From the NCBI GenBank assembly GCA_024225875.1, contig JAAEMD010000027.1, forward strand, positions 1 to 34,606: 34,606 nt of DNA, written 5' to 3'. Positions 2,632-30,106 of the stretch are shown here, piece after piece. A program made the position numbers and the translations under genes. The stretch comes from a bacterium. Its GTDB lineage: Bacteria > Margulisbacteria > Marinamargulisbacteria > JAAEMD01. The notes beneath the pieces are model-generated. The model did no database searches. It worked only from the letters and a program-made list of their open reading frames with translations, and was not told where the DNA came from. Position 1 is the first letter of the stretch. The number at the start of each line of letters is the position of its first letter.

Positions 2632-3357
2632 TTGCATAGCATATTTTCTACAATAATTATTATTATTTTCATATCTTCAGGTTTAGCTGCTGCAAAACCC
2701 GACAAAAGTGCTATTGCTGACTATATTAAAAAGCAGGTAATCAGGCAGGTTTTAGATAAAAACAGTCAATTTTCCAGCTCCGATATAAAAATAAGCATCC
2801 AGAACAAAGAAATATTAAAATATGTGCCAGAAAATACTGTAACCTGCAAACTGGATATAAGACCAAAAGCAAATTTACTGGGAAAAACTGTACTGCCTCT
2901 CTTATTTTACAGCCAAAAAAATAATTTACTCAAAAAAACAAGCGTTATTATTAATACTAATGCTTATACAAATTTTGCCAGAACTACAAAAACAATAAAG
3001 CGTGGTACAGTCTTATCCAGAGAACATATAGTATTTAAATACGAGCCCTTTTATGGAAAACCTGTTAACTGCCTTTTAAAAACAGAAGATATAATCGGTA
3101 AAGAAGCTTTTTCTACAATACCAAAAAATGCTTTAATAACAGAATGGCTCATCAGAGATATTCCTGACATAAGAAGTAATGATAAAATTACTATTGTCTT
3201 GAATAAAAACAATTTAGAACTCCGTGTAGGAGGTATTGCTCTGGAAAACGGTTATATAGGAGATAACATACGTATCAGAACTACTTTAAAAGAAAGAAAA
3301 TTATTAGAAGGTACAATAATAGCACCACAGTGTGTTAAGATTTTTATGGTAAACTAA
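2632..3357 (+). CDS. flgA: Flagellar P-ring assembly chaperone FlgA
   Basis: Sec signal peptide (IIIIIFISSGLAAA). SAF-like segment IKRGTVLSREHI and C-terminal DKITIV...LELRVGGIALENGYIGDNIRIR pattern. It sits between flgG and flgH. TTG start with no clear SD. Confidence 0.7.
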   Translation: MHSIFSTIIIIIFISSGLAAAKPDKSAIADYIKKQVIRQVLDKNSQFSSSDIKISIQNKEILKYVPENTVTCKLDIRPKANLLGKTVLPLLFYSQKNNLLKKTSVIINTNAYTNFARTTKTIKRGTVLSREHIVFKYEPFYGKPVNCLLKTEDIIGKEAFSTIPKNALITEWLIRDIPDIRSNDKITIVLNKNNLELRVGGIALENGYIGDNIRIRTTLKERKLLEGTIIAPQCVKIFMVN

Positions 3358-3366
3358 TATCATATT

Positions 3367-3984
3367 ATGAAAAAAACAATATTTATTTTTTTACTGGCCC
3401 TCATATTTTCAGTTTATACAGTAAACTGCATAACTGCGGATTCTCTCTGGCACCAATCCCAGGGAGCTATGTACAGCACCCATAAAAAAGAAGTTCGTGT
3501 AGGAGACATTATAACCATTTATATTTCAGAAAGTTCTTCTGCAGTCCAGGAAGCATCAACAAGAACACAAAAACAGTCACAAATGTCATCAAACTTCTTA
3601 AGCAACTGGGATCAGATAGCAAATATACTGGGTAATGATACAATAAGAAAAAGACATGAACTGGACATACAGGGTGAAGATGAGTACCAGGGTCTTGGAC
3701 AAACGACCAGAAAAAGCAGTGTTAAAGCTGTTATATCTGCAATCGTAACTGAGATTCTTGATAGCGGCAATATCTATATAGTCGGTGAACATAAGGTAAA
3801 AGTAAATGACGAGGTAGAAACAATAAGAGTGTCCGGAATTATCCGTCCCGGCGATATTCAATCAAACAACAGCGTTTATTCCTATCAAATTGCTAAAGCT
3901 GAAGTCTCTGTAAACGGGGCTGGGGTTGTGGGTTCCAAGCAAACGCCTGGCATATTAACTAAAATGTTTAACTGGTTATTTTAA
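3367..3984 (+). CDS. flgH: Flagellar L-ring protein FlgH
   Basis: Signal peptide ending in Cys (YTVNC). Core motifs VGDIITIYISE and IVGEHKVKVNDEVETIRVSGIIRPGDI are typical of FlgH. Confidence 0.85.
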   Translation: MKKTIFIFLLALIFSVYTVNCITADSLWHQSQGAMYSTHKKEVRVGDIITIYISESSSAVQEASTRTQKQSQMSSNFLSNWDQIANILGNDTIRKRHELDIQGEDEYQGLGQTTRKSSVKAVISAIVTEILDSGNIYIVGEHKVKVNDEVETIRVSGIIRPGDIQSNNSVYSYQIAKAEVSVNGAGVVGSKQTPGILTKMFNWLF

Positions 3985-3986
3985 TT

Positions 3987-5108
3987 ATGAGAAAAACTAC
4001 GTCTTTATTTTTATTAAAATTCCTGATCCTGTTAAACACTGTTTTATCAGGCCAGGATCTATCACCAGAGTCCACAACACAGTACCTGCCTGTCAGACTT
4101 AAAGATCTCGCCAGGATAGTAGAAGCCAGAGATAACCAGCTGCTGGGATTTGGCCTGGTTGTTGGATTACGTAACAGCGGTGATTCCAAAAACACTTCTT
4201 ACACGCATGCAGCATTAATAAATCTCCTTTCAAAACTGGGAGTTTCCCCGGGCAGCAGCCCTGATAACTCCAGAAACATTGCAGGTGTTATGGTCACAGC
4301 AACACTTCCACCATTCACAAAAAAAGGACAACGAATCACTGTAACAGTATCCTCTTTAGGAGACTGCACAAGTTTAGTCGGGGGAACTCTGTTATTAACT
4401 GAACTGAAAGGTGCGAATTTAAGGACATACGCCGTTGCTCAGGGGCCGATTCTGGTTGGAGGTATTTCTGAAAACACTGAAAACTACAAATTCTATAAGA
4501 ATCAAACAACTGTAGGAAGTGTCCCGGATGGAGGTATAGTGGAAAACGAGGTACCAATAACTTTCACAGATCAGCATAATATTACAATAGTACTTAACGA
4601 CTCCAACTTTATAACTGTGGCTCGTGCAACCAAAGCTATTCAACAAAGCAACTTCCCCAGTGCAAGAGCTATTGATGCAAATACAATAAAAATCCCGCTC
4701 ACAGATCTTGATTCAAGTGATCTGGTTAATACAATTGCAAAACTGGAAAATATTACGCTCGTACCTGACTCATCTGCGAAAATTATTATTAACTCCAAGA
4801 CAGGTACAGTAGTTATTGGAGAAATGGTACGGTTATTCCCTGTTGCACTGACACATGGAAATATTTCAGTAAAAATAAGCGAAGGATCTGGTGCTGGTAA
4901 TACACAGGCCGAGTTAGGTGCAGAAGTACTGGAGCCAGTACAAATAGAAGAAACTGAAAGCAAAATTATTTATCTGAGTCCCAGCTCAACATTATCCAGC
5001 CTTGTTAACGCCTTAAATGAAATTGGAGCAACACCGAAAGACCTGATTTCAATTATTCAAGCATTAAAAGAATCAGGCTCACTAATAGCAACGGTGGAAA
5101 TAATATGA
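3987..5108 (+). CDS. flgI: Flagellar P-ring protein FlgI
   Basis: Signal peptide followed by RLKDLARIVEARDNQLLGFGLVVGLRNSGDS, the hallmark FlgI N-terminus. Length 373 aa. Confidence 0.9.
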   Translation: MRKTTSLFLLKFLILLNTVLSGQDLSPESTTQYLPVRLKDLARIVEARDNQLLGFGLVVGLRNSGDSKNTSYTHAALINLLSKLGVSPGSSPDNSRNIAGVMVTATLPPFTKKGQRITVTVSSLGDCTSLVGGTLLLTELKGANLRTYAVAQGPILVGGISENTENYKFYKNQTTVGSVPDGGIVENEVPITFTDQHNITIVLNDSNFITVARATKAIQQSNFPSARAIDANTIKIPLTDLDSSDLVNTIAKLENITLVPDSSAKIIINSKTGTVVIGEMVRLFPVALTHGNISVKISEGSGAGNTQAELGAEVLEPVQIEETESKIIYLSPSSTLSSLVNALNEIGATPKDLISIIQALKESGSLIATVEII

Positions 5109-5494
5109 CAAATAAATACCTTTCATTTTTTATTTTTTTTATTAAAATATTATTAGCAGCCAATTTATCTGCTCAACAATTTGGAGGTTTAAGCGACTTG
5201 GATATATACAGACAATCAAAAAACTCAAATACCAATTATCGTCAAATGCCACCTGAAAAAATTCTGGAAAAAACAGAGGCCCATTTTATAAAAGAAATGT
5301 TCTTAAAAACAATATTCCAGATGAATAAAACAACTATGGGGTCAGATGAAAATGATCAGTTTTTTGCTGCTAATTCTGAATTAGTTAATGAGTTTTTGAT
5401 GGATGAGCTGGCTAAAGATCTTGCTGAGCAGGATATTTTAGGGTTTAAAAAAGCTTTTTTAAAAAGATATAAAAATAGAGAGTCAGCAAAATAA
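5105..5494 (+). CDS. Rod-binding protein (FlgJ N-terminal domain-like, no muramidase domain)
   Basis: EAHFIKEMFLKTIFQM and ...LAEQDILGFKKAFLKRY resemble the Rod_binding (FlgJ N-terminal) pattern FE..F...ML..M ... G.A. The ATGA overlap with the flgI stop suggests translational coupling. The N-terminus looks like a Sec signal (LLAANLSA/QQ). Confidence 0.6.
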   Translation: MTNKYLSFFIFFIKILLAANLSAQQFGGLSDLDIYRQSKNSNTNYRQMPPEKILEKTEAHFIKEMFLKTIFQMNKTTMGSDENDQFFAANSELVNEFLMDELAKDLAEQDILGFKKAFLKRYKNRESAK

Positions 5495-5522
5495 TTTATA
5501 TATTGAATAAAGGACAATTTCC

Positions 5523-6269
5523 GTGAAAAAAGAAAGTGTAAATTTAGATATAAAAAAACTACAACAAACAGAAGCTCTGAGTGTGAAGGAAAATGACGTC
5601 ATTCCTGAAGAGGTTGTTGCTGAAAATATGTCTCTTGTAGAGTCAATAGCAGCTTCCATTTATGGCAGAGGCGCTCTGCCTACAGGAATAGAGTTCCGTG
5701 ATTTAGTAAGCTGGGGGGTAGAAGGCCTTATTAAGGCCTATAAAAGATTTGATGCTGAAAAAGGTTCTAAATTTAAAACTTATGCTTACTATCGTATCAG
5801 AGGTGAAATTTTCGACAATATAAGATCTGAATGGCAATACAGAAACCCCAGTGATTACAATGAGTTTCGACGCCATGTCCAGGAAAAAATTGCCGAGATA
5901 ACTGAAGAGGCGCTAAATAATCCCAATACTTTTTCAGCCGATTCACTTGAAGATTCAATAAATAATATAATTGCAAACTCATCTTTTGTTTGTATAATTT
6001 CTCTTGAGAGCTTAGGCGATACTGAGGCAGGTGTATCAGATGACCTGGAACAAGATTTTTTCACTTCTGAAAAAGAAAATATTTTATGGAATGAGATAAA
6101 CAGTTTATCCAGAGAAGAACAGATATTAATAAAATTATTTTATTTAGAAAATGTAAAACAAAAGGAAATTGCAAAAATATTAAAATGGTCCAAGAGTAAA
6201 GTTTGCCGGGCTCATATGAACATATTAAAAAAGTTGAGAAACAAAATCCAGAAAAAGCTGAAGGACTGA
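5523..6269 (+). CDS. fliA: Flagellar sigma factor FliA (sigma-28 family)
   Basis: Sigma-70 region 2 (FKTYAYYRIRGEIFDNIR) and a region 4 helix-turn-helix (QKEIAKILKWSKSKVCRAHMNILKKLR). About 248 aa, which is group-3 sigma size. It is embedded in the flagellar cluster. GTG start with AAAGGA upstream. Confidence 0.8.
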   Translation: MKKESVNLDIKKLQQTEALSVKENDVIPEEVVAENMSLVESIAASIYGRGALPTGIEFRDLVSWGVEGLIKAYKRFDAEKGSKFKTYAYYRIRGEIFDNIRSEWQYRNPSDYNEFRRHVQEKIAEITEEALNNPNTFSADSLEDSINNIIANSSFVCIISLESLGDTEAGVSDDLEQDFFTSEKENILWNEINSLSREEQILIKLFYLENVKQKEIAKILKWSKSKVCRAHMNILKKLRNKIQKKLKD

Positions 6270-6533
6270 TCAATCCCCACACATCATTTGCAAATTTTTG
6301 AAAAATATTTTTTATCTTATGCTTTTTGCAAATAGTATTGATTTCATTAATGGCGCTGTCGAAAAACTACCTTCTTCAAAAACCGAAGAAAATGGTTTAG
6401 AAAAACAGGGGCTTAAAATGACCGTTAGCGGCAATATCAATGCTAATGAATCGTCCGAAGACACTTCAAAAAACACCAATTTTGAAAATCAGTCTATTTT
6501 GCGACAGTCCCATATTGTATAATACCCGACCCT

Positions 6534-6562
6534 TTGGCTAACATATCAAAATGCTGTATAAT
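6534..6562 (+). promoter_or_regulatory. Candidate sigma-70-type promoter for flgB (TTGGCT-17 nt-TATAAT)
   Basis: TTGGCT at 6534-6539, a 17-nt spacer, then TATAAT at 6557-6562 preceded by TG. ATG 6570 lies 7 nt after the -10 box and has no SD, which is compatible with a leaderless transcript. Motif-only call. Confidence 0.3.
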
Positions 6563-6569
6563 ATTTTAT

Positions 6570-6998
6570 ATGTTGAAAACAAAATTTTATTTTATTTTTG
6601 TAATATTTTTCATTATTTCTATATCTTTTAATAATTTTTCTCTTGCCCAGAACACATTTACACCATCATCTGAAACTAATTTTGCTGAAAACATCCTTTT
6701 TGATGATACAATGTCCAACCTGAAAAAGGCTATTCTCCATGCCAGCAAAAAACAGTCTCTCTATGCTTACAATATATCAAATGCTACAACACCTGAGTTT
6801 AACCCTGTTCTAGAACAGGATGAATACAGACAGCTGGCAAGCATACTGCCTCCTGGCGAAGAAAATAACAGAAAAGTAATGATGGAGTTTATTTTGACTA
6901 AAATGTCAGAAAACAGATTAAAATATAATGCCTACTTCAGCTTACAGAAAAAAAAGTTTGAAATTCTCAGGCAGGTAGCCACACAAGGGAAAAAATAA
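6570..6998 (+). CDS. flgB: Flagellar proximal rod protein FlgB (with N-terminal hydrophobic extension)
   Basis: SLYAYNISNATTPEF matches the FlgB N-motif (NIAN..TPGY), and the C-terminal MSENRLKYNAYFSLQKKKFEILRQV matches the FlgB tail. The start is placed at the first in-frame ATG (6570). The track ORF opens at TTG 6534, and an internal ATG at 6711 is the alternative. Confidence 0.75.
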   Translation: MLKTKFYFIFVIFFIISISFNNFSLAQNTFTPSSETNFAENILFDDTMSNLKKAILHASKKQSLYAYNISNATTPEFNPVLEQDEYRQLASILPPGEENNRKVMMEFILTKMSENRLKYNAYFSLQKKKFEILRQVATQGKK

Positions 6999-6999
6999 G

Positions 7000-7467
7000 A
7001 TGATAAATATAAAGAAGTTAGTTTTACTATTATTAGTTTTTACTTTATCTACCATCATAACAAGTCAAATTTACTCACAGGGCCTTGTGGATAGTTTTGA
7101 TATTACTACCTCAGGTATAATTGTCCAGAAAATGAGATTGAATGTCATTGCTGAAAACGTTGCTAACATTACAACACTAAGAGATGAAGAAACCGGAGTC
7201 CCCTACCAGAAAAGATTTGTCGTACTACGTCCATCAGAAAAAGGTGTTCAAATCGAAAGCATTGAAAAAAGCACAGAACCTTTTGGTAAATACTTTGATC
7301 CTTCATACCCTGGAACAGATTCAGACGGATATTATTATTATCCAAATATCAGCCTTCCTGATGAGATGGTTAATCTGAATTATACTGAAATGGTATATGA
7401 AGCTAATGTATCTGTGTTTAAATCATCAAAAGCAATGTATCAGCAAGCATTAGACATAATAAAATAG
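7000..7467 (+). CDS. flgC: Flagellar proximal rod protein FlgC (with N-terminal hydrophobic extension)
   Basis: SFDITTSGIIVQKMRLNVIAENVANITT equals the canonical FlgC N-terminus. C-terminal motif LPDEMVNLNYTEMVYEANVSVFKSSKAMYQQALDI. ATG 7000 lies 1 nt after the flgB stop. An alternative GTG at 7087 would give a canonical-length protein. Confidence 0.8.
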   Translation: MINIKKLVLLLLVFTLSTIITSQIYSQGLVDSFDITTSGIIVQKMRLNVIAENVANITTLRDEETGVPYQKRFVVLRPSEKGVQIESIEKSTEPFGKYFDPSYPGTDSDGYYYYPNISLPDEMVNLNYTEMVYEANVSVFKSSKAMYQQALDIIK

Positions 7468-7476
7468 GGGTTTTGA

Positions 7477-8235
7477 ATGTCATCTTTAAAAAACATGGAA
7501 TCAATTAATACTATCAAAAAAATTATTAATTCGGATAAATCATCACTAAAAAATAATACTGCAGCTACTGCCACTCCATTTAATACCTTTCTGGACAATG
7601 CTATTAACCCCAGTAAGCAGAACTCATTACTAAATTCTAATATCCTGGCTCCTGATAAATATACACAGGTACAGCAGGCTGCTAACTTTGCACAGGCCAT
7701 AGCTAAAGATGAGCTGGACAAAAAATATAAAAAAATAATTAAAGAAACAGATGATCTTCTGGCTCAAATCATACCAGATCAAGAGATCAGCAAAAACCCT
7801 TCTACTCAAATTGCACAGGCTTTTCCAAATAACCCGGATATAACTCCTTTTACAAGAGCCACAGACATCTCTGAAGATTTAGTCGCTCAAGCGTTCCCAG
7901 ATCCTGCAACAACAACAAGAAGAGCCCCTCTGCAGCCAAGAGTACCTTTAGAGGAACTAACAGCAGAGAATGTTAACATAGCTACTCCCGGCACAAATAA
8001 ACTTGATACAACACCTTTCCAGTTTTTTATGGATAAAGCTGTTGAAGCCCTGGAAGGAGTTAGTGAAATAGAATTAAGGGTAAACGATTTAATGGATAAG
8101 TATATAGAAGGAAAGGTTTCAATTGAAGAAGTATCTATTGAAACTGCTAAGCTGACACTCGCTATTTCTTTTGCTACAACTGTAATAACACAAACAACTC
8201 AAACATTTAAGGAAATTCAAGGAATGCAGGTATAA
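7477..8235 (+). CDS. fliE: Flagellar hook-basal body protein FliE (long N-terminal extension)
   Basis: The last 85 aa or so (FQFFMDKAVEALEGVSEIE...TFKEIQGMQV) match the FliE domain, including the characteristic ...MQV C-terminus. At 252 aa it is about 2.5 times the usual FliE length. Confidence 0.7.
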   Translation: MSSLKNMESINTIKKIINSDKSSLKNNTAATATPFNTFLDNAINPSKQNSLLNSNILAPDKYTQVQQAANFAQAIAKDELDKKYKKIIKETDDLLAQIIPDQEISKNPSTQIAQAFPNNPDITPFTRATDISEDLVAQAFPDPATTTRRAPLQPRVPLEELTAENVNIATPGTNKLDTTPFQFFMDKAVEALEGVSEIELRVNDLMDKYIEGKVSIEEVSIETAKLTLAISFATTVITQTTQTFKEIQGMQV

Positions 8236-8283: not shown

Positions 8284-9894
8284 ATGGCAGAAATAGATTT
8301 TGAAGCAGAAGATGATTACGAAAATGATCCAGAAGAAGATTTATATGGAGATAGTGAATCAGATAATTTTTCTAATGCAGATAATGATATAGACAGTAAT
8401 ACATCCGAAAGTTTATTTTCACGTCGCCGCATAATAGTTGTACTTTCTATTATTGGCGTTGTTTTTTTAGTCAGCTTTTTTCTTTTCGGCATCAGAAATA
8501 ATAAAAATAAACCAGGTAAAAATGCTTCATTCAGCTCTGGGTATACTTCTTTAGATACTAAGCCTGAAAAAAAGAGTAAAAAGAAAAAGAAGCGTATTAA
8601 GTTTGAAAAACTATATGACTTAACATCACTCCAGCTCCCTGATGTTTTAAGAGAGCTGAGTTTAGCAGGCATAGCATTCAAAACAGAGCAGAAAGGAAAA
8701 AACTATTCTATATCAGTAGATAGCAGTCAATCAGAAAAAGCAAAGAACCTTCTTGCTGTAAAAGGGCTGCCATCAAGTGGCGCCAGAGGTTATCAGCTTT
8801 TAGATAAATCCCAAACTCTGGGAGTTACTGAATTTGACAAAAGAATTAGATTTTTAAGGGCACTTTCGGAAGAGCTTGAAAAAGCAATAATGCAGTTCGA
8901 TGCTATTGATAGTTGTAAAGTACAAATTGTTATACCGGAACAACGGCTTTTTGCAGTTACTCAACCACCTGTAACATCCTCTATTCTATTAAGGAAAACT
9001 ACTTCTGCAAAATTAACAGATGAACTGGTATTTAGTGTAATTGAACTGGTATCTAATGCAGTCGAAAACCTCCAGCCTGAAAACATATCAGTAATTGATA
9101 CGGAAGGTCATGTTTTATCTAAAGGTCTCTTAGAAAGAATGTCTAAAACAGACCGTATTAGAAGAAGACAGAAGGCAGAACAAAAAAAAGTAATAATACA
9201 GGCAAAAAAACTACCAAAAGTAGGTCAGCCGATTATTCCTGATTTCAATAGAATAAAACACTGGTATGAAGTAAAAAAACAGTTTGAGGAGTCTCTTGAA
9301 GATAAAGCTGGTAAACAGCTGACCGGCATTCTACCTGTTGGTAGTTTTAAAATCGCTATTACAGCAGATATCGGGCCTCTGGAGGAAGGTAAAATAGTCG
9401 ATATAAAACGCCTTTCAGCAAGTGTTGTAGTTGATAATGCGAACGATGATATAGAACTGGATACATCAACAAAAACTCAAATATATAATACTATCGCAGC
9501 CTCTATCGGTTATATTAAAAAAAGAGACTCCATACGACTAAGCAAAGCTAACTTTTCTCTGCTTTCACAGGATGAAAAAGATGATCTAGTCAAAAAACAA
9601 AAGCATAAAAGGCTTCTAAAGTTAATATCAAAATACAGCAGCATAGCACTTCTAGCAATTATAGTTCTCGGTATTATTATTTTTATTTACAGGAAAATAA
9701 AAAAGAAAAAAGAAACTTCTGCACCAATAATGTCCAGTGAATCACGCGAAACTGATTTTTCTGATATCCAGGATGAAATCAGTAGTGATAAAAAACTGGA
9801 AGAAATAAAATATTATACATTATCTAACCCGGACATAATCGCGCAGATAATGGAAGAGTGGCTTACAAGTGCAAAAGAGGAGGTTTTTCAATAA
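8284..9894 (+). CDS. fliF: Flagellar MS-ring protein FliF
   Basis: N-terminal TM helix, then a YscJ/FliF-type periplasmic region (LSLAGIAFK..., GLPSSGARGYQLLDKSQTLGVTEFDKRIRFLRALSEELEKAIMQFDAIDSCKVQIVIPE). A second TM helix sits near the C-terminus. It precedes fliG with a TAATG overlap. Confidence 0.8.
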   Translation: MAEIDFEAEDDYENDPEEDLYGDSESDNFSNADNDIDSNTSESLFSRRRIIVVLSIIGVVFLVSFFLFGIRNNKNKPGKNASFSSGYTSLDTKPEKKSKKKKKRIKFEKLYDLTSLQLPDVLRELSLAGIAFKTEQKGKNYSISVDSSQSEKAKNLLAVKGLPSSGARGYQLLDKSQTLGVTEFDKRIRFLRALSEELEKAIMQFDAIDSCKVQIVIPEQRLFAVTQPPVTSSILLRKTTSAKLTDELVFSVIELVSNAVENLQPENISVIDTEGHVLSKGLLERMSKTDRIRRRQKAEQKKVIIQAKKLPKVGQPIIPDFNRIKHWYEVKKQFEESLEDKAGKQLTGILPVGSFKIAITADIGPLEEGKIVDIKRLSASVVVDNANDDIELDTSTKTQIYNTIAASIGYIKKRDSIRLSKANFSLLSQDEKDDLVKKQKHKRLLKLISKYSSIALLAIIVLGIIIFIYRKIKKKKETSAPIMSSESRETDFSDIQDEISSDKKLEEIKYYTLSNPDIIAQIMEEWLTSAKEEVFQ

Positions 9895-10982
9895 TGTTAA
9901 CAGGTAAAGAAAAAGCTCAGATTCTACTTGCTTTATTAGAAGATCAAGCTCAAAACGTTTTAGCTAAACTATCACCTGAAAGTTCCGCCTTATTAACTTC
10001 CTCCATAGAAGACGCTCCTAAACCAGACCCTGCTGATCTTAATATTTTATTTTCAGAAGTACTGACAAAAGTTGATGAAATAAAAAGTAAATCTCTACTG
10101 GACGCACCAGATAATGAAGAGCATCTTGAAAGTATAGATAAAACAACTGGAGAAGAAAGTCTATTATATAGTGATGATGAAAATAAAGAAGGCGAGATAA
10201 GCAATAAAGATATAACAGATGCAGGAGAAAGTGATAGCCTTATAGAAGATCCCGAAGATAATTCGGAAGAAGAGCCACCTCAGCGGGATATATCAGAAAT
10301 AGCAGATATCCTGTCAAGACAAAAGCCGCAGATTATAGCTTTTTTCCTGGCTAAAGTTGATGATGAAATGCGTGTCCGGCTGATAGAACATCTACCAAAA
10401 AAAATACGCTCTCAAATAGAAAGCCATGAAATAGAGCCCATACCAATCTCAGACAGTGTTTTTAAAAATCTATACGAAAGCATACTAAAAAGTGCTGAAC
10501 CAAAAACTGATGACCAGGAAGCTGATAAAATCAAAGAAGCAGAAGAAGGCTCCTTTTCAGACCATACGTTAGTATCTGAAACTTCTTCTTTCTCAGATAA
10601 AAGTGACTTTGAGGATGATCTATCTGATCATTTACAAGACAACAGCACATCTGCAATACCGGAAAATGATGCTGATATCGATTCTTTATCCAGTGACTTT
10701 ATTCAAAACCAGGACCAGGTTTTAAACACAGCAGAAGAATCTGAAAACTTATCCAGCTCAATAGTAGATCTGGATTCAGAATTAACACCTGAAGAGTTTA
10801 ACGAAAATAGTCTGGATGATTATGATATCATTCCTGATGAACAGGAAACAAAAGGTACGACTGAAGATGATATTATATCTTTAGACTCTCAGGACGAAGA
10901 TATTATACAGGAAAATGATATCTTTGAAGAAGATCTTGAAGACGCAATAGACCTGGAAAACTCTGATAATCTCTCATTTTAA
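9894..10982 (+). CDS. FliG-like protein: FliG N-terminal domain plus the first part of the middle domain, then an acidic low-complexity tail (no recognisable C-terminal torque domain)
   Basis: LTGKEKAQILLALLEDQAQNVLAKLSPE aligns with the FliG N-terminus. ISEIADILSRQKPQIIAFFLAKVDDEMRVRLIEHLPKKIRSQI aligns with the EHPQ-containing segment of the FliG middle domain. The start is set at ATG 9894 (TAATG overlap with fliF, AGAGGAGG upstream) rather than the track start 9858. Confidence 0.65.
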   Translation: MLTGKEKAQILLALLEDQAQNVLAKLSPESSALLTSSIEDAPKPDPADLNILFSEVLTKVDEIKSKSLLDAPDNEEHLESIDKTTGEESLLYSDDENKEGEISNKDITDAGESDSLIEDPEDNSEEEPPQRDISEIADILSRQKPQIIAFFLAKVDDEMRVRLIEHLPKKIRSQIESHEIEPIPISDSVFKNLYESILKSAEPKTDDQEADKIKEAEEGSFSDHTLVSETSSFSDKSDFEDDLSDHLQDNSTSAIPENDADIDSLSSDFIQNQDQVLNTAEESENLSSSIVDLDSELTPEEFNENSLDDYDIIPDEQETKGTTEDDIISLDSQDEDIIQENDIFEEDLEDAIDLENSDNLSF

Positions 10983-11014
10983 TTTTTTATAAATCCTGCC
11001 TTTTATATATACTA

Positions 11015-11127
11015 TAGCTGGTACAAATTGAAATGTCCGTTTAAATGTCTGAGTGCTGTGTACTTGCGTACATAAACGAAGTCATTTAAAAACTTTAAGT
11101 GTCAGAGATTTTATTTTGGATCAGCTA
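11015..11127 (+). repeat. Family-A palindromic MITE-like repeat, copy 1 (113 bp)
   Basis: TAGCTGGTACAAATTGAAATGTCCGTTTAAAT...TTTTGGATCAGCTA. It is near-identical to the copies at 28445, 28756, 28868 and 31419. TA flanks both ends. It lies between the convergent fliG and lnt genes. Confidence 0.9.
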
Positions 11128-12631
11128 TATGATCTGACAATAATAAAGAATATATTATTAATATAATGGATATATAAACAAATATATTGCCAGTGATACT
11201 ATATAAGCTCTTATTATCACGTATTAAAAAACTTTCATTTATGATACCTTTTTTATTCAACTGCATTTTAGCTATTACTTTTCCCTTATTAGAAACCAGA
11301 CCTGATATGCCCGTATTCGAAACCTGTATCATAAACCGATCATTTTCTACTGCTCTTAATATACTCATCTGGAAAAGCTCTTCTGCGGCTATAGACCCAA
11401 AAAACCATGCATTATTAGCAAGGAAACATAAAATATCAGCTCCTTTGTTTACACCTTTTCTACTAATTTCAGGATAAATTGATTCCAGGCAAATACCCCC
11501 AGCTACTTTTAATTCTTTTACTGACAGGCACATTGGTTCATTTCCCCTTTCATAGTCTGATGTAACAAGGTCTTCATCAAAAAATTTTATAATATTTTTT
11601 GCCGGCCAGTATTCCCCGAATGGCATCAATCTAGTCTTTTTATAGTACTTTAAATTTATACCTTTATCATCAATAACAACTGCAGCATTATAATATTTAC
11701 CATCCTCATGTACAGGAGTTCCAAATATTATTGATATCTTATATTTATCAGCGATCCATTTAAGCTTACGAATAAATTCCGTACTTTCCAGATTAAAGAC
11801 CGGGGTGATCGTTTCCGGCCAGATTACAATATCAGGCTGGCCCTTAACTGCCTCAAGGGTCATATTTATATAGTCCTGCCGTATTAACGGCCAGTATTTT
11901 TTTTGCATTTTTTTTGACTGCTCATGGTTTGCCTGGATAATTGCTGCCTTTACTTCTTTATAGTCTTTACTTATAGCCGCCATGTTATCTTCTTTAGAAA
12001 GCTGTCGCCATCCAGATAAAAAAACAATAGTGCTTACTAACATTAAAATTATAAAATGCTTTTTTATCTCCTGGCCGCTTATCAGCTTCCATAACAAAAC
12101 ATTACATAAAACAATAAAAAAAGATAATCCATACAGCCCAAAACCAGAAGCTGTCTGCAGTACTGGTAAAAAAGAAGACTGCGAGTACCCCAGTGCACCG
12201 GCAGAGCTTCCCACAGGACCTGCTGTTCTTAACCATTCAGCAAATATCCAGCAGGCAGGAAAGAGGTAAATATCAGGAATTGAGTTCCTGCCCCAGGCAT
12301 ATAAAAACATCGCTGTCCCATAAAAAAGTGCATAGAATAAAGAAGCTGCAACCCATAAAATCACAACATAATACCAGGCTGCCCATGCCTGCAGCTCCAG
12401 CATCCATCTATGAAAATAGAGCATTATTATAAAGCCATAAACTAACCCTCTAAAAAAAAACTTTCTTCTTATACCTGACTTTGCGTACCTCTGATTAGAA
12501 TCTGCTGCTTTATTCAAATCAAACAGCAGTGGTATTAGACATATATATGCTATAAAAAATAAGTTAACTCCAGGGAAAATCAGACACGTCAGAAGTGCCG
12601 AAATAACTGTTATAATATTCTTACCTCCCAT
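11111..12631 (-). CDS. lnt: Apolipoprotein N-acyltransferase Lnt
   Basis: Multi-TM N-terminal half plus a C-terminal CN-hydrolase domain with WPE (IVIWPETITP), K (YYKKTRLMPFGEY) and C (GGICLESIYPE) triad contexts. The last 5 codons and the stop lie inside repeat copy 1. Confidence 0.85.
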   Translation of the reverse strand: MGGKNIITVISALLTCLIFPGVNLFFIAYICLIPLLFDLNKAADSNQRYAKSGIRRKFFFRGLVYGFIIMLYFHRWMLELQAWAAWYYVVILWVAASLFYALFYGTAMFLYAWGRNSIPDIYLFPACWIFAEWLRTAGPVGSSAGALGYSQSSFLPVLQTASGFGLYGLSFFIVLCNVLLWKLISGQEIKKHFIILMLVSTIVFLSGWRQLSKEDNMAAISKDYKEVKAAIIQANHEQSKKMQKKYWPLIRQDYINMTLEAVKGQPDIVIWPETITPVFNLESTEFIRKLKWIADKYKISIIFGTPVHEDGKYYNAAVVIDDKGINLKYYKKTRLMPFGEYWPAKNIIKFFDEDLVTSDYERGNEPMCLSVKELKVAGGICLESIYPEISRKGVNKGADILCFLANNAWFFGSIAAEELFQMSILRAVENDRFMIQVSNTGISGLVSNKGKVIAKMQLNKKGIINESFLIRDNKSLYSITGNIFVYISIILIIYSLLLSDHIADPK

Positions 12632-22177: not shown

Positions 22178-23515
22178 TCACTCAGCACCAAATATATTTT
22201 CTAATTTTAGAAAGTATAGAGTTAAAATCAATAGATCCGCTGAACCACCACAGGAAAGATTATGAAAGTTACAATAACTGCAAAGATCCTCATACAGGAG
22301 TCTGGATCTTTCGTTCCAAAAACCGGCATCTATAATTTGACCGGCATATTCTTTAACTTTATTCAAATGATCAATTCCACCCCGGTAGATAATATTTGTA
22401 TCATTATTTTCATGTATAATTTCAGTCAGAACTGCTGTCATTAATTCTTCCCCGCTTAACCTGCTTTTAATAGATCTGGCAGCAGGGATACCCGTATTAA
22501 AAACCAGAGGCAAACCATCCTCGGCTTCCCCTCTTGCTCCAGCAAGTCCAAAATCTCTGAACACCAGCGCACCATGAGTATTTATCCTTATATTTTTTAA
22601 TTCAGCTGTAATATCTCTGGTCATATCCTTGATATCGGATGAAATAAATTCATAGTCTATTATCCCTTTATCCTTAATACTTCTGACAGAAGCTATAATA
22701 GCCAGTCCAAGTAAAAAAACAGCCCCCTTATGGGTATTAACCCCGTGTGTGACCCGTAACATCTCCTGCTCCATCTTCAGACCTGTCATCCTCATTCTAT
22801 TTAACCTGTGTTCTGCCGTCCAGTTTTCATTTAATGCCATAAATGCCATTTGCCTGTACCCTGCCATTAATACTGCACTGCTTTTTATAAAAGTAAAGAA
22901 GTTCATATCCTTATGAGGACCACTACTCAACCTTGTAACTAAACCAGGTTTTGGATGAAGCGATACCTCAGACAAGAGTGCTGAATAAACACAATAAAGT
23001 AGATTATCAACTATATTATTATTTTCTTTATCTTTTACATAAGAAATCAACAGCTGATCACAATAACCTCGTAACTCCTCTATTGAATGTTCTTTTCTTT
23101 TAATACATATTTGAGCCTGTTCATTACATAAAAAACATTTCTTCTTTTTAGAACCGGAAACTGAGCTGCCAATCTTTTCATAAATATCAATATCGCATAA
23201 CCGGCCCAGCACATGATTCTCTTCAAATTCTAAAGCAGCCTTTTTCAGTTTTTTTAAATCTTCCTCCTTTACAGGAATAAACATATAATGACCGGCTTCA
23301 TCAACACCTGTTTCCTCTTCTACTTTAAAAAAAGTACTAAAAAACATTTTCACCTCTTCTGCTAATAAAACAAAGGCTTTTTTTATATATTCAGAAGATT
23401 TAGGATAGCCTGGAATATTGAGATTAAATGTAATAAAAGAAGAGCCTGCGCTTATACGCAGGCTCTGCCTTTTTTCTCTGGCACTTAAAATCCTGTTCAA
23501 GAAACCAGAGTTCAC
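22178..23515 (-). CDS. citXG: Fused CitX/CitG: holo-citrate lyase ACP synthase plus triphosphoribosyl-dephospho-CoA synthase
   Basis: The N-terminal ILSAREKRQ...NLNIPGYPK resembles CitX. The C-terminal HPKPGLVTRLSSGPHKDMNFFTF and later GGSADLL resemble CitG. GTG start with AGGAG upstream. It is the last gene after citF. Confidence 0.8.
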   Translation of the reverse strand: MNSGFLNRILSAREKRQSLRISAGSSFITFNLNIPGYPKSSEYIKKAFVLLAEEVKMFFSTFFKVEEETGVDEAGHYMFIPVKEEDLKKLKKAALEFEENHVLGRLCDIDIYEKIGSSVSGSKKKKCFLCNEQAQICIKRKEHSIEELRGYCDQLLISYVKDKENNNIVDNLLYCVYSALLSEVSLHPKPGLVTRLSSGPHKDMNFFTFIKSSAVLMAGYRQMAFMALNENWTAEHRLNRMRMTGLKMEQEMLRVTHGVNTHKGAVFLLGLAIIASVRSIKDKGIIDYEFISSDIKDMTRDITAELKNIRINTHGALVFRDFGLAGARGEAEDGLPLVFNTGIPAARSIKSRLSGEELMTAVLTEIIHENNDTNIIYRGGIDHLNKVKEYAGQIIDAGFWNERSRLLYEDLCSYCNFHNLSCGGSADLLILTLYFLKLENIFGAE

Positions 23516-23553
23516 ATTTTCTCCTGTTTAAAACTCAATAAACTATTACCGGC

Positions 23554-25110
23554 CTAACTCTTAACTTTCCTGATAACATCAATAATGCTGCCATCCCTGT
23601 ATTCTACAACTGCTACTACTTTATCCTCAAACTCAGGTTCTTCAGGTTTCCCACAAATCCTTTCTACTTCTTCTGCCAGTTCATTTATATCTCTTATCGG
23701 CAATCCTGAACCTTCAAGTTTATCTTTTAAATCCTGCCTTAAAGGATTGATACAAATACCCTTTTCTGTAACCAGCAAATCAACTGAAGCGCCTGGTGTA
23801 ACAACTGTATGGATATTCTTTTTAACAATTGGCAAACGTCCTCTAATAGATGGTGCTACTAAAACCGTAAGACTGGCACCGGCAGCAGTGTCACTATGTC
23901 CTCCGGATGCACCCCTGATATTTCCGTCAGAACCTACCAGTACATTCACATTAAAATCAGTATCTATCTCAAGTGCAGCTAATACTACCGTATCCAGCTT
24001 ATGTGTCATACAGTCACAATTAAGCGGGTTAGCATACTGCGATGCCGAAATTTCTATATGCTTTTCATTACCATATATAGACTTTGATACCGCTGCATCA
24101 AAACTCTGAACATCAAATGCAAGATCAAAAAGACCTTCTTCCAGCATATCTGTCATAACAGATGTTATGCCGCCCAGTAAAAATCCGCCTTTTATATCTT
24201 TCTTTCTCATATAATCACAAATAAATCTGGCTACAGCTAACGAAGCTCCACCAGCACCACACTGGAAAGAAAAACCATTTTTAACATAGCCCAGTTTAAT
24301 CATTGCCTCTGCTGCAAGGTCTGCAATCCTTAAATCCATGGGATTCTTAGTTATCCTGGTTGTATCACCAGCAATTTTTTCAGGATCTCCAATACTATCA
24401 ATTTTCACAACATAGTCTACATCTTTTTGCTTTATAGAAGACGGTAAGCAGGGGTACTCCACCAGATTATCCGTTACAACAACCACCTGTCTTGAATATT
24501 CCGAATCTATCATTGCATAACCTAAAGAACCACAAGCAGATTTTCCCCAGCTCCCTGTAGCATTTCCTGCCTCATCTGCTGCTGCTGCTGATATAAACGA
24601 AACATCGATTTTTATTCTACCAGCCTCTATAGCTCTTGCCCTTCCACCATGCGAATGAAAAACAGCAACCTTCTTCAATTTACCAGCAGATACCGCCTTG
24701 CCCAGTTTACCTCTACATCCGGATGTGAAAATACGTGTAATAGTCCCGTCCTCAACATATGGAACAAGTGGTTCATGCGCTCCAGTTAATGATGAAGAAG
24801 CAAGGGTAATATCTTTTAATCCTCTTTTTGCCAGAGACTCGATAACAGGAACAATAGTTCCATCTCCACCTCTCATATGATGATGAAATGAGATCGTCAT
24901 TCCATCATGCAGTTCTAACTTATCTAAACATTCTTCAAGATTATCACATACTTTTACATGGTCTACCGGCTTTACTTTCAATGCCTGAGGAGCCTTAAAA
25001 CTGCTGCCTGATTTTATTGAATTAACAATAGCCCATTCACCCTGATAAGGAACAATATTATCAATACCATCAACACTTTGAGGAATCTCTCTTCCAATAG
25101 AATTTTTCAT
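23554..25110 (-). CDS. citF: Citrate lyase alpha subunit (citrate CoA-transferase) CitF
   Basis: 518 aa. Its position is citE-citF with an ATGA overlap. ISFHHHMRGGD and GGHSDTAAGA segments are typical of CitF. Confidence 0.9.
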   Translation of the reverse strand: MKNSIGREIPQSVDGIDNIVPYQGEWAIVNSIKSGSSFKAPQALKVKPVDHVKVCDNLEECLDKLELHDGMTISFHHHMRGGDGTIVPVIESLAKRGLKDITLASSSLTGAHEPLVPYVEDGTITRIFTSGCRGKLGKAVSAGKLKKVAVFHSHGGRARAIEAGRIKIDVSFISAAAADEAGNATGSWGKSACGSLGYAMIDSEYSRQVVVVTDNLVEYPCLPSSIKQKDVDYVVKIDSIGDPEKIAGDTTRITKNPMDLRIADLAAEAMIKLGYVKNGFSFQCGAGGASLAVARFICDYMRKKDIKGGFLLGGITSVMTDMLEEGLFDLAFDVQSFDAAVSKSIYGNEKHIEISASQYANPLNCDCMTHKLDTVVLAALEIDTDFNVNVLVGSDGNIRGASGGHSDTAAGASLTVLVAPSIRGRLPIVKKNIHTVVTPGASVDLLVTEKGICINPLRQDLKDKLEGSGLPIRDINELAEEVERICGKPEEPEFEDKVVAVVEYRDGSIIDVIRKVKS

Positions 25111-25994
25111 TTCAAACCTCCTGCATCAACACCGGCAAGCTCTAAAACCCTTTCTGCACGAGCAACAACAGGTGCATCAACCATTTTTCCATTAATAGCA
25201 AAAACTCCCACACCTTCTTTTTGAGCTTTGATATTTGCCTCAACAATTATTTTTGCTTTTTCAATAGCATCATCTGATGGCATATATACGTCATGTACAG
25301 GTTTAATCTGTCTCGGATTAATAACAGCTTTACCATCAAAACCAATTGTTTTGATCATTTCTGTTTCTTTTATAAGACCTTCTTCATCATCAACATCGGC
25401 ATAGACCGTATCAATAGCTGCGATTCCCGCGGCCTTGGCTGCCATTACAATTCTCTGTCTGGCATACGCTATTTCTTCTCCTGTATCAGTTTTAACAACC
25501 TGCATATCAGCGGTTAAATCCTGAGCCCCAATAGTTAAAGCTGTAATTCTCTGTGAACAAGTTGCTATAGAAAAAGCATTTTCTACGCCAACAGCAGTCT
25601 CAATCATAGCGTGTATCATTGTTGAACCAGCTTTTATACCATTCTCCTTCTCAATCCTGGTAATTATCTCATCAGCTTTTTTAATATCATTTTCTGTATT
25701 AATTTTAGGTATCCTGACTGCATCCGGTTTCTGAGGAACAATAGCCTCCATATCATCTATTGCATAGTCTGTATCCATGCCATTGATTCTTACTGTAACT
25801 TCAACATCCCCAAAGTCGATAAAATCAAGCATATTTCTAACTAAAACCCTGGCATCTTCTTTTCTATTAACAGCTACCGCATCTTCAAGGTCCAGCAGTA
25901 TTGAATCTGCACCATAGACAGCTCCATTCTGAACCATAGCAGGGTTATTTCCAGGAATATAAAGCATAGTTCGTTTTAATTTACCTTTTGCCAT
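25107..25994 (-). CDS. citE: Citrate lyase beta subunit (citryl-CoA lyase) CitE
   Basis: RTMLYIPGNNP...DSILLDLEDAV is a HpcH/CitE signature. The start is moved to ATG 25994 (TAATG overlap with the citD stop, AAGGAG upstream) instead of the track start 26012. Confidence 0.9.
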   Translation of the reverse strand: MAKGKLKRTMLYIPGNNPAMVQNGAVYGADSILLDLEDAVAVNRKEDARVLVRNMLDFIDFGDVEVTVRINGMDTDYAIDDMEAIVPQKPDAVRIPKINTENDIKKADEIITRIEKENGIKAGSTMIHAMIETAVGVENAFSIATCSQRITALTIGAQDLTADMQVVKTDTGEEIAYARQRIVMAAKAAGIAAIDTVYADVDDEEGLIKETEMIKTIGFDGKAVINPRQIKPVHDVYMPSDDAIEKAKIIVEANIKAQKEGVGVFAINGKMVDAPVVARAERVLELAGVDAGGLK

Positions 25995-26272
25995 TAATTC
26001 TCTCCTTTCCAAGATTTAAGAATTGCAGACTCCGCTCTAGCTTTAATTGTTGGAGTTAAAGCCCCTCTATCATTTATTTTTAAATGAACATCTTCTATCT
26101 TATGTTTATCTAAAACTTCTATGATATCTTTTTTTATCGAGTCGCCATATTCATTTAAAACCATTGACTCAAGCTCTATTTTTCTTCCAACCCCACTTTT
26201 CACAGGATCCACAACAACAATAAGATCACAAGATTCTAATGAACCCGACTGAGCTGTTGTTTTTAATTTCAT
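25994..26272 (-). CDS. citD: Citrate lyase acyl carrier protein (gamma subunit) CitD
   Basis: 92 aa. SGSLESCDLIVVV contains the conserved prosthetic-group serine context (G.LES.D). Confidence 0.85.
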   Translation of the reverse strand: MKLKTTAQSGSLESCDLIVVVDPVKSGVGRKIELESMVLNEYGDSIKKDIIEVLDKHKIEDVHLKINDRGALTPTIKARAESAILKSWKGEN

Positions 26273-26315
26273 AGTTTACCTCGCCTGTCTTTTTTATTCT
26301 TTACTAAACATAAAA

Positions 26316-26354
26316 GAACTCCCTCTGGCATATTTATAATACTAAAGGGAGTTC
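26316..26354 (-). terminator. Hairpin between acn and citD (possible weak terminator or attenuator)
   Basis: Perfect 9-bp stem GAACTCCCT/AGGGAGTTC with a 21-nt loop. On the minus strand it is followed by TTTTATGTT. The large loop and short T-run make it weak. Confidence 0.35.
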
Positions 26355-26410
26355 CATACAAACTATTTTTTTTATACCGCTTGTGTAACGCTTAACTTTA
26401 TCTATAGCTT

Positions 26411-29085: not shown

Positions 29086-30075
29086 TTGTCACTAATAAAA
29101 AAATTCTGGAAAACAGCTGGATCCAGAGAGAAAACAATTGTTCTTCCTGAAGGCAGTGATGAAAGAACTATTGATGCAGCTAACGAAATAACAAAAAATA
29201 AAATTGCAAAAGTTATAATTCTGGGTAATATTGAAAAAATAAAAAAATCTTTTGAAAATAAAGGCTACTTAATACACTGTGAAATTATAGATCCTGAAAA
29301 AAGTTCCCACTATAAAGAATTTTATGAAACTTATTACGAGATGAGAAAAGCCCGGGGAATGACTCTGGAAGAAGCAAAAGAAATTATGAGAGACCCTTTG
29401 TACTTTGGATCTATGCTGGTAAATAAAGGTGTTGCTGATGGTGCTGTTGCAGGTGCTGAAAATACAACTGGAGATGTCCTGCGTGCAGCTATCAGAATCA
29501 TCGGCACTAAACCTGAGATGAAAACTGTATCCAGTTGCTTTATAATGGAAACTAACAATAAAAAATTAGGTAAAGACGGGGCACTGATATTTGCAGATTG
29601 TGCAGTAAATCCAAATCCTGACCCTGCTAAACTGGCAGATATCGCACTGGCCTCTGCTGAAAGCTGTAAAACATTCCTTGAAGTTGACCCCTCAGTAGCA
29701 CTTCTTTCTTTTTCAACTAAAGGAAGTGCCAGACATGAAGATATCAATAAAGTACAGGCAGCTTACAGGCTCTTAAAAGAAAATCACCCTGATCTTAATG
29801 TTGACGGAGAACTACAGGCAGACGCAGCACTGATAGAGTCAGCAGGATCAAAAAAAGCTCCAGACAGCCCTGTAGCAGGAAAAGCAAATGTCCTGATATT
29901 TCCTAACCTCGATTCTGGAAACATTGGATATAAATTAGTAGAAAGAATTGCTGGTGCCGAAGCAATCGGCCCAATAATCCAGGGGCTTGCAAAACCTGTC
30001 AATGATCTATCAAGAGGCTGCAAATATATGGATATTGTAAACGTTGCAGCTATAACTGCCGTACAGGCTCAATAA
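29086..30075 (+). CDS. pta: Phosphate acetyltransferase Pta (short form)
   Basis: [36 protein letters not shown] and [18 protein letters not shown] are Pta/PTA_PTB hallmarks. TTG start with GGAGG 9 nt upstream. Confidence 0.9.
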
Positions 30076-30106
30076 CATAAATACTATATAAAACCAGGAG
30101 GTCATA

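Follow-up and report, generated by a model that had tools for sequence, protein, structure and literature searches.

The locus described here raises the question of how the parts of a flagellar rod cross the inner membrane. The stretch of DNA analyzed (the window; 34,606 nucleotides, positions 1 to 34,606 of the forward strand of contig JAAEMD010000027.1, assembly GCA_024225875.1, GTDB lineage Marinamargulisbacteria) harbors a flagellar basal-body cluster in its first 11 kb, on the + strand. The proximal rod proteins FlgB and FlgC, a FlgF-like rod paralog and a FlgJ-like rod-cap protein of this cluster begin with hydrophobic segments that resemble the signal peptides of the general secretory (Sec) pathway. 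The original prediction had stated, rightly in our judgment, that rod proteins and FlgJ are normally type III substrates and that only FlgA, FlgH and FlgI use Sec; we know of no axial (rod, hook, filament) protein that does. It had offered two options, namely, that part of the rod is delivered by Sec or anchored in the membrane, or that the true start codons are internal. The Sec branch was supported, because the signal anatomy equals that of FlgA, FlgH and FlgI of the same genomes and because the phenylalanine motif docking to FlhB is lost only in the signal-bearing proteins; the internal starts were rejected by the comparative data. On FlgB, FlgC, the FlgF-like protein and the single-domain FlgJ cap, the hydrophobic segments are probably true signal peptides of the Sec type that signal peptidase I can cleave.

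All four N-termini were found in the window as had been described. The FlgJ-like protein (5105-5494, +; 129 amino acids (aa), rod-binding domain only) starts at ATG 5105 with MTNKYLSFFIFFIKILLAANLSA↓QQ, the arrow marking the predicted cut, which gives a predicted signal peptide at 5105-5173 (23 aa, ..LSA↓QQ). FlgB (6570-6998, +) starts at ATG 6570 with MLKTKFYFIFVIFFIISISFNNFSLA↓QN (predicted signal peptide 6570-6647, 26 aa, ..SLA↓QN), and FlgC (7000-7467, +; Pfam Flg_bbr_C) at ATG 7000 with MINIKKLVLLLLVFTLSTIITSQIYS↓QG (predicted signal peptide 7000-7077, 26 aa, ..IYS↓QG). The hydrophobic stretch of the first rod paralog, the FlgF-like protein (3-797, +; Pfam LlgE_F_G_D1), is likewise there, in a frame that is open to base 3 and reads ..FLFFLTLLCVFFLVPDKNFA↓LRSVYEEV; as this frame runs to the window edge, which cuts its 5' end, its start codon lies outside the window, and the residues encoded by 3-68 (NTFLFFLTLLCVFFLVPDKNFA) form the end of a signal-peptide-like segment. 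In each of the four, the start is positively charged, the hydrophobic core has ∼13 residues and the site is of the small-x-small type, mostly A↓Q. A non-hydrophobic N-terminus starting at the rod motif, as in type III substrates, was not seen in these proteins; a hydrophobic extension of 20-30 residues comes first. Past its predicted signal, FlgB continues with a ∼20-aa linker and then the canonical FlgB N-terminus (ILFDDTMSNLKK..), and the predicted mature end of FlgC lies ∼5 residues ahead of the FDI..SG motif, where canonical FlgC starts. The listing of open reading frames had placed the start of FlgB at TTG 6534; ATG 6570 fits the orthologs. A sigma-70-like promoter match (TTGGCT-17-TATAAT, 6534-6562) ends 7 bases before ATG 6570, so that the flgB message would be nearly leaderless, which speaks against the TTG start; the match is to the consensus only, and 14 such matches occur in the region against 9.6 expected.

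Hydrophobicity was expressed as the highest 8-residue Kyte-Doolittle mean. It was 2.9 for the FlgJ-like protein and 3.8 for both FlgB and FlgC of the window, and 3.6, 3.5 and 2.8, respectively, for the Sec-type positive controls of the same genome, FlgA (2632-3357, +; Pfam ChapFlgA), FlgH (3367-3984, +; Pfam FlgH) and FlgI (3987-5108, +; Pfam FlgI). A FlgG-like rod paralog (869-1684, +; Pfam Flg_bb_rod, D1 and Flg_bbr_C) and the distal rod protein FlgG (1801-2598, +; Pfam match), which have canonical N-termini without a signal peptide, served as internal negative controls; together with FliE (7477-8235, +; Pfam match), whose long N-terminal extension is non-hydrophobic and devoid of a signal peptide, they scored 0.75-1.35, with 1.35 for the 869-1684 paralog. 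For E. coli, the values were 2.5-3.5 for the Sec substrates FlgA, FlgH and FlgI and 0.5-1.8 for the type III substrates FlgB, FlgC, FlgD, FlgE, FlgF, FlgG and FlgJ.

Orthologs were collected from 25 distinct related loci (L001, L005-L027 and L033), each covering the cluster and 6 kb on either side. An in-frame hydrophobic core between the start codon and the rod motif was present in 25/25 FlgC, 24/24 FlgB and 13/13 detectable FlgJ-like proteins as well as in all 16 FlgF-like orthologs with a complete 5' end, with hydrophobicity values of 2.1-4.2; this is far beyond chance. The FlgF-like orthologs run from M through a K/R-rich start and the hydrophobic core to ..A followed by F, Y or W, the protein of L001 beginning with MKNKNLFKKNLLILLILVIIGLTHTIYP. 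FlgG had no hydrophobic extension in 19 related loci, with a stop codon located 1-22 codons upstream of its Met, and the core was absent from FliE in every locus despite the long N-terminus. Outgroup FlgC proteins (Eubacterium and metagenome-assembled genomes (MAGs) of Planctomycetes, Phycisphaerae, Eisenbacteria and Chitinophagales) start directly at the rod motif. The window has a GC content of ∼0.35, and an AT-rich composition artefact was considered and ruled out, the trait being still present at GC 0.47-0.56; AT-rich codon bias is no explanation, because the trait spans GC 0.33-0.56.

The anatomy of these extensions was compared with that of the FlgI, FlgA and FlgH signals encoded in the same genomes. 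The median core hydrophobicity was 3.0-3.1 for the four rod and cap families and 3.1-3.4 for FlgI, FlgA and FlgH, and the median predicted signal length 20-25 and 21.5-24 aa, respectively. A net positive n-region was found in 71/79 proteins of the four families and in 59/64 of the controls; counted by family, the net charge was at least +1 in 24/26 FlgC, 24/25 FlgB, 11/14 FlgJ and 12/14 FlgF-like proteins. The hydrophobic run had a median of 13 residues (9 in FlgJ), as against 13-14 in FlgI, FlgA and FlgH and 16 in the first transmembrane helix of FliF. A small-x-small site was located by a rule-based n-h-c heuristic in 76 of the 79 proteins; the heuristic misplaces sites, e.g., in FlgC of the window and in L008 and L009, and weight was put on the group statistics and on A↓Q sites recognized visually. 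Residue -1 is A, G or S, rarely C, and residue +1 is Q in 12/25 FlgC, 17/25 FlgB and 8/13 FlgJ; the commonest site is A↓Q in FlgB, FlgC and FlgJ, and A followed by an aromatic residue in FlgF-like proteins. The c-regions are polar, with frequent proline, and the predicted cut of FlgC falls 1-7 residues before the FDI..SG motif in most genomes. By these measures, the rod and cap N-termini are indistinguishable from the FlgA, FlgH and FlgI signal peptides of the same genomes. A lipoprotein (signal peptidase II) signal was rejected, as none of the four families has a conserved Cys or the lipobox [LVI][ASTVI][GAS]C, and so was a twin-arginine translocation (Tat) signal, as the n-regions are K-rich and the four families have no conserved RR motif (S/T-R-R-x-F-L-K).

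The internal start codons proposed for FlgJ-like (ATG 5246), FlgB (ATG 6711) and FlgC (GTG 7087) were found at these positions. Translation from them was contradicted by the orthologs, in which no start codon occurs at these places (in L001 the residues are G, F and K). No ATG, GTG or TTG occurs between the hydrophobic core and the rod motif of FlgC in 11/25 related loci, and the same holds for FlgB of L014, FlgJ of L008 and the FlgF-like proteins of L022, L026 and L027. The flgI and flgJ genes overlap by ATGA in the window and in L001, as do flgB and flgC in L001, and in the window a single base separates the stop of flgB from the start of flgC; judged from this spacing, the long starts are translationally coupled. 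The extensions keep their hydrophobicity across the orthologs, with the frame open in every genome. Between closely related pairs, the mature part is 70-98% identical and the extension 0-80%; pairs with 95-98% identity in the mature part share 44-80% in the extension, and the reading frame never breaks despite this fast sequence change. The differences in the extensions fall on codon positions 1, 2 and 3 in the ratio 997/767/1070, so that position 2 changes least; as the pairs are not independent, these counts are given as a pattern without a P value. Codon position 2 sets hydrophobicity, and non-coding DNA would give equal counts at the three positions. In addition, 85% of the amino-acid substitutions in the extensions avoid charged residues. 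The suggestion that the upstream segments evolve like non-coding DNA is refuted by these data; they evolve as coding sequence selected for hydrophobicity.

The identity of the proteins was assessed by profile comparison and gene position. FlgC has a PF06429 match, lies between flgB and fliE and contains the N-terminal rod motif; its family profile matched PDB FlgC chains with E of 2.5e-24 to 3e-16 and aligned to solved chains (7bin_V, 12du_W) only from profile position 27-28, corresponding to chain residue 3-4. The extension is without counterpart in solved rod structures, and alignments to canonical FlgB, FlgC, FlgF and FlgJ showed it to be a pure N-terminal add-on. FlgB of the window alone gave no Pfam match; the FlgB family profile aligned to E. 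coli FlgB in hhalign (probability 92%, E 6.6e-7), the orthologs in L039 and L047 match PF00460, and flgB is placed directly upstream of flgC. The FlgJ-like protein of the window matched the Rod-binding domain PF10135 only at E 0.21, 7/15 family members match (best E 9e-6), and hhalign to residues 40-99 of E. coli FlgJ gave E 0.0036 but a probability of only 9%. The adjacency of flgI and flgJ is conserved, and the FlgJ-like protein is devoid of a peptidoglycan-hydrolase domain.

In Salmonella, F45 of FlgB is essential for secretion and docks into a hydrophobic pocket in FlhB's cleaved C-terminal domain, and F49 of FlgC is not required for secretion (PMC9307174). FlgC F49 was dropped as a second docking test, being dispensable and hence uninformative. 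The docking motif was scored in FlgB, FlgF-like proteins and FlgG as F-x-x-x-hydrophobic within 16 residues after TPGY. It was present in 13/13 FlgB proteins without a signal peptide (E. coli, Pelagibius, Dongia, eight outgroup MAGs and the Margulis-type L039 and L041). It was absent from 24/25 Marinamargulis FlgB, the single motif found sitting at an odd position, and from 3/3 alphaproteobacterial FlgB with a signal peptide; in FlgB of the window, residues 78-93 (6801-6848) contain no such motif. In the same Marinamargulis genomes, the signal-free FlgG retains the motif in 19/19 cases (..ESLFPLVL..). Among FlgF-like proteins with a signal peptide it was found in 1/14; FlgF of L039, without a signal peptide, has FPEFL, and the FlgG-like paralog at 869-1684 has FPRDM. 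Decay of the type III docking determinant has thus usually gone along with the gain of a Sec-type signal.

Relatives with identical gene order form a graded series with respect to the signal-bearing proteins. A candidate division WOR-1 genome (L047, GCA_001771695.1) has the signal on none of the four, the metagenomic loci L039 and L040 on FlgC only, with fliH, fliI and fliJ downstream, a Margulisiibacteriota MAG (L041) on FlgC and FlgF, and the metagenomic locus L042 on all four, with fliH and fliI directly downstream. When 1.84 billion representative sequences were searched with the FlgC profile, 26 of the best 150 matches had signal-like N-termini, a ranking that is biased since the profile includes the hydrophobic part. 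One of these matches led to an unrelated, uncultured alphaproteobacterial clade that also has the extension (24 of the best 120 matches); its nearest named relatives (e.g., Pelagibius, Dongia and Roseomonas) have a canonical FlgC of 135 aa. The alphaproteobacterial loci L038, L043 and L044 have AXA-type signals on both FlgB and FlgC, in an operon flgB-flgC-fliE-fliQ with GC 0.40-0.56; in L038 and L043 a canonical FliE is followed by the export-gate gene fliQ, and L044 has fliX after flgC instead. From this distribution, the predicted Sec-type rod signals arose at least twice, independently, and coexist with type III components.

Sec export, cleavage and periplasmic assembly are inferred from the signal anatomy, conservation, selection, distribution and docking-motif loss. 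The route would begin with FliE, exported first by type III secretion to open the gate. FlgB, FlgC, the FlgF-like protein and the FlgJ cap would then cross the inner membrane via SecYEG, and signal peptidase I would cut at the small-x-small site, mostly A↓Q, leaving a nearly canonical mature N-terminus. The cut subunits would join the nascent rod from the periplasmic side, on a template of FliE and export gate inside the open MS ring, and FlgG of the distal rod would still use the flagellar type III channel, passing through the finished proximal channel. Cleavage is favored because the N-terminal helix is buried in solved rods and FlgG must pass the lumen; going by known rod architecture, uncleaved hydrophobic helices on the inner D0 helices would be expected to clog the channel for FlgG.

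Several points weigh against this route. The carriers are all uncultured, and the case is built on sequence comparison. The cleavage sites come from the heuristic mentioned above rather than from a trained predictor and are sometimes wrong, and the ortholog counts are phylogenetically non-independent, amounting in effect to two independent gains and one graded series. To our knowledge, rod subunits have never been shown to assemble from the periplasmic side, and free rod subunits with unfolded ends might be prone to degradation or to exclusion by the cap. The loci cover 6 kb around the cluster, and a second, canonical set of flgB, flgC and flgF may lie elsewhere in these genomes. Within the same distance, fliH, fliI and fliJ were not found in Marinamargulis loci. 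Finally, the signal-bearing FlgB of L042 retains FEEEL, and FlgF of L041 appears to retain FANIL (read by eye, as the motif scan was mis-anchored and returned none); the correlation between motif and signal is not absolute, and these exceptions would fit a recent gain of the signal. A separate search with FliI retrieved proteins named Margulisiibacteriota, WOR-1 and Saganbacteria, with none labeled Marinamargulisbacteria among the best 120.

An unlikely alternative is that export still proceeds by the flagellar type III apparatus and that the hydrophobic N-terminus has another role, such as guiding the nascent chain to the vicinity of the membrane or serving as an export signal peculiar to the lineage. 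N-terminal type III signals are known to tolerate wide sequence variation, type III components are encoded in the same operons (fliH and fliI in L042, fliQ in L038 and L043), and the Phe motif is kept by FlgB of L042 and, as it appears, by FlgF of L041. However, the signal recognition particle (SRP) or SecA and signal peptidase I recognize this very layout of a positively charged start, a 13-residue hydrophobic core and an AXA site, and the segments match the FlgA, FlgH and FlgI signals of the same cells. The docking motif is lost from FlgB and FlgF-like proteins but kept in FlgG of the same genomes, and the same architecture evolved twice.

It is also improbable that the segments are uncleaved signal anchors that hold FlgJ and the proximal rod proteins at the inner membrane (N-in, C-out), whether to keep a pilin-like pool of membrane-held subunits or to immobilize the rod. 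Uncharged spans with a median of ∼20-21 residues would suit an anchor, and a few hydrophobic runs reach 19-20 residues; moreover, FliG has no torque-generating C-terminal domain, and rotation of the rod is therefore uncertain. The hydrophobic runs nevertheless resemble, at a median of 13, the signals of FlgI, FlgA and FlgH and not the transmembrane helix of FliF, and they are followed by a polar, often proline-containing c-region with small residues at -1 and -3 at a fixed distance. The extension adjoins the D0 helix, which is buried in solved rods; sixteen extra helices would be unable to reach the membrane from FlgC and FlgF or to fit the lumen, and FlgG, having no signal peptide, still needs passage through the channel.

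Very unlikely is the reading in which these proteins are not true axial rod components but Sec-exported paralogs of another periplasmic structure in a degenerate or repurposed apparatus, the canonical rod genes being elsewhere or absent. It would accommodate a FliG with N and M domains only and the absence of fliH, fliI and fliJ from the Marinamargulis cluster, and it draws on a view limited to the loci and on genome scan patterns specific to this type of FlgC. On the other hand, the genes occupy orthologous positions in a conserved operon, with canonical versions in the same operon of L047 and L039, the rod motifs persist in the mature parts, which match solved FlgC chains and FlgB of E. coli, and the alphaproteobacterial copies are located in a standard flgB-flgC-fliE-fliQ operon. 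An annotation artefact, with translation from the three internal starts and the upstream stretches being untranslated AT-rich sequence, could appeal to the existence of those codons in the window and to an AT-rich genome favoring F, I, L and K codons, but it is essentially excluded on comparative grounds by the lack of conservation of the internal candidates, the 11 FlgC orthologs without any start codon between core and rod motif, the frame open in every genome with codon position 2 most conserved, the presence of the feature up to GC 0.56 and the ATGA coupling of the long starts.

The order of the conserved operon is flgF-flgG-flgA-flgH-flgI-flgJ-sigma-flgB-flgC-fliE-fliF-fliG. Apart from the genes already described, it comprises in the window a sigma-70-family (FliA-like) sigma factor (5523-6269, +; Pfam Sigma70_r2 and r4), whose position is kept in all related loci, fliF (8284-9894, +; Pfam match) and fliG (9858-10982, +; Pfam match). 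The cluster is of the Marinamargulisbacteria type; in one-genome-per-species contigs, the closest FlgC relatives were single-amplified genomes and MAGs of Candidatus Marinamargulisbacteria and Margulisiibacteriota (42-55% identity), and only five close relatives, all metagenomic, were found in 5.8 billion proteins. One apparent FlgC, P0006, a 609-bp ENA contig in which the C-terminal part of FlgC is joined to a PurD-like N-terminus (PF02844), was dropped as most likely an assembly chimera. MAGs labeled Actinomycetota (L007, L024 and L025) and Rickettsiales (L016) hold the Marinamargulis-type flagellar cluster, and these labels are probably wrong. The third FlgG-like paralog (869-1684) is limited to the window, L001 and L010, the other related loci having one FlgF-like and one FlgG gene. 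FliE of the window has 252 aa with a polar-rich, non-hydrophobic N-terminal extension of ∼150 aa, similar to that in Marinamargulis-type loci; it is of ordinary length (103-112 aa) in L039, L041, L042 and L047. In FlgH (3367-3984 and orthologs), the lipobox cysteine of E. coli FlgH (LTGC) is mostly absent and the signal ends in ..A↓DSLW; this L-ring protein may be non-lipidated in the lineage. Throughout the clade, the rod genes are preceded by a FliK-like gene and by one for a free-standing FlhB C-terminal domain (119-125 aa, Bac_export_2), in 14 loci in all (L001 2378-4042, L039 1171-2857 and 12 related loci other than L001 and L039/L040); the window begins too late to hold this pair. Genes of ordinary metabolism, i.e., citrate lyase (CitE, CitF and a CitG/X fusion), aconitase, phosphotransacetylase and acetate kinase, flank the flagellar region at 22178-28339 (-) and 29086-31357 (+).

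In FliG (9858-10982), only the N domain and the M domain's first half are present, and FliG_C, which contacts MotA and generates torque, is absent. The same truncation occurs in L001 (12905-13921), L039 (11136-11633), L041 (8493-8990), L042 (12471-12968) and L047 (8827-9324). The Marinamargulis type adds an acidic low-complexity tail; FliG of the wider Margulis/WOR-1 clade has only 165 aa, with fliH, or secA in L041, immediately after it. A link between the truncated FliG and the signal peptides was rejected, as the 165-aa FliG is also found in L047, where all rod proteins are canonical. With such a FliG, the apparatus might be non-rotating, or a separate gene might encode the C domain. In L041, a single MAG with signals on FlgC and FlgF, secA (9002-11485) follows fliG on the same strand at a distance of 12 bases, which may be a coincidence. 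Taking together a Sec-built proximal rod and cap, a FliG without its torque domain and the fliH, fliI and fliJ genes missing from the cluster, it is a tentative and rather doubtful possibility that these genes encode a machine derived from the flagellum that spans the envelope, may not rotate and is put together for the most part by the general secretory pathway.

In all models of flagellar (and by extension injectisome) assembly known to us, every axial protein passes the type III channel in an unfolded state and is added at the distal tip. Searches of the open-access full-text literature gave no report of FlgB, FlgC or FlgF with Sec-type signals; no description of Marinamargulisbacteria flagella was found in the open-access literature either, and the founding Margulisbacteria paper is silent on flagella and motility. 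If confirmed experimentally, the proteins described here would be a natural counter-example to the rule for axial proteins, conserved in a lineage, having arisen at least twice and accompanied by loss of the docking motif. If so, axial flagellar parts would not depend intrinsically on type III export, the periplasm could be the side from which the proximal rod nucleates on FliE and the export gate, and the order FliE, then FlgB, FlgC and FlgF, then FlgG could be enforced without passage through the channel. The export routes of machine subunits could then swap stepwise in evolution, with FlgC first, FlgF next and FlgB and FlgJ thereafter. As to annotation, these N-termini may be trimmed by gene callers and curators, and rod proteins will come out as 'secreted' in secretome prediction.

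The proposed Sec route resembles that of type IV pilins and type II pseudopilins, fibre subunits that are brought to the periplasmic face by Sec/SRP by means of an N-terminal hydrophobic segment and polymerize there. There is no homology; the pilin helix is retained as the fibre core and prepilin peptidase cuts on its cytoplasmic side at a G↓F motif, whereas the site in the rod proteins is of the AXA type and follows the hydrophobic region. Compared with canonical FlgB, FlgC, FlgF and FlgJ of Salmonella and E. coli, which are early type III substrates, the proteins are alike in operon position, in the N-terminal rod motif ..N-I-A-N-x-x-T-P-G-F/Y and in the C-terminal heptad region and D1 domain. 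They differ in the n-h-c signal peptide of 20-30 residues ahead of the canonical start, in the lack of the Phe docking motif from FlgB and FlgF-like proteins and in the lack of the hydrolase domain from FlgJ. Single-domain FlgJ proteins partner with Sec-exported lytic transglycosylases, SltF in Rhodobacter sphaeroides and BB0259 in Borrelia, FlgJ itself being a type III substrate (PMC8517470). Rod cap and hydrolase are separate proteins in those systems as well; only the hydrolase uses Sec there, whereas here the FlgJ-like cap itself bears the signal. A gene for an SLT-domain lytic transglycosylase with an N-terminal hydrophobic segment was observed upstream of the cluster in L039, L040 and L042. 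The known users of Sec in flagellar assembly are FlgA, FlgH, FlgI, the FliP signal peptide and accessory proteins, e.g., the lytic transglycosylases SltF and BB0259 (PMC8517470, PMC12403130), and the FliP signal peptide of Salmonella is cut between Ala21 and Gln22 (PMC12403130). The rod and cap proteins share the signal statistics of FlgA, FlgH and FlgI of their own genomes and the favored A↓Q type of site. FlgA, FlgH and FlgI, the P/L-ring proteins with their chaperone, and FliP differ from them in being located in rings that encircle the rod or in the membrane; with FlgA, FlgH and FlgI, periplasmic delivery of basal-body parts is already normal in flagellar assembly.

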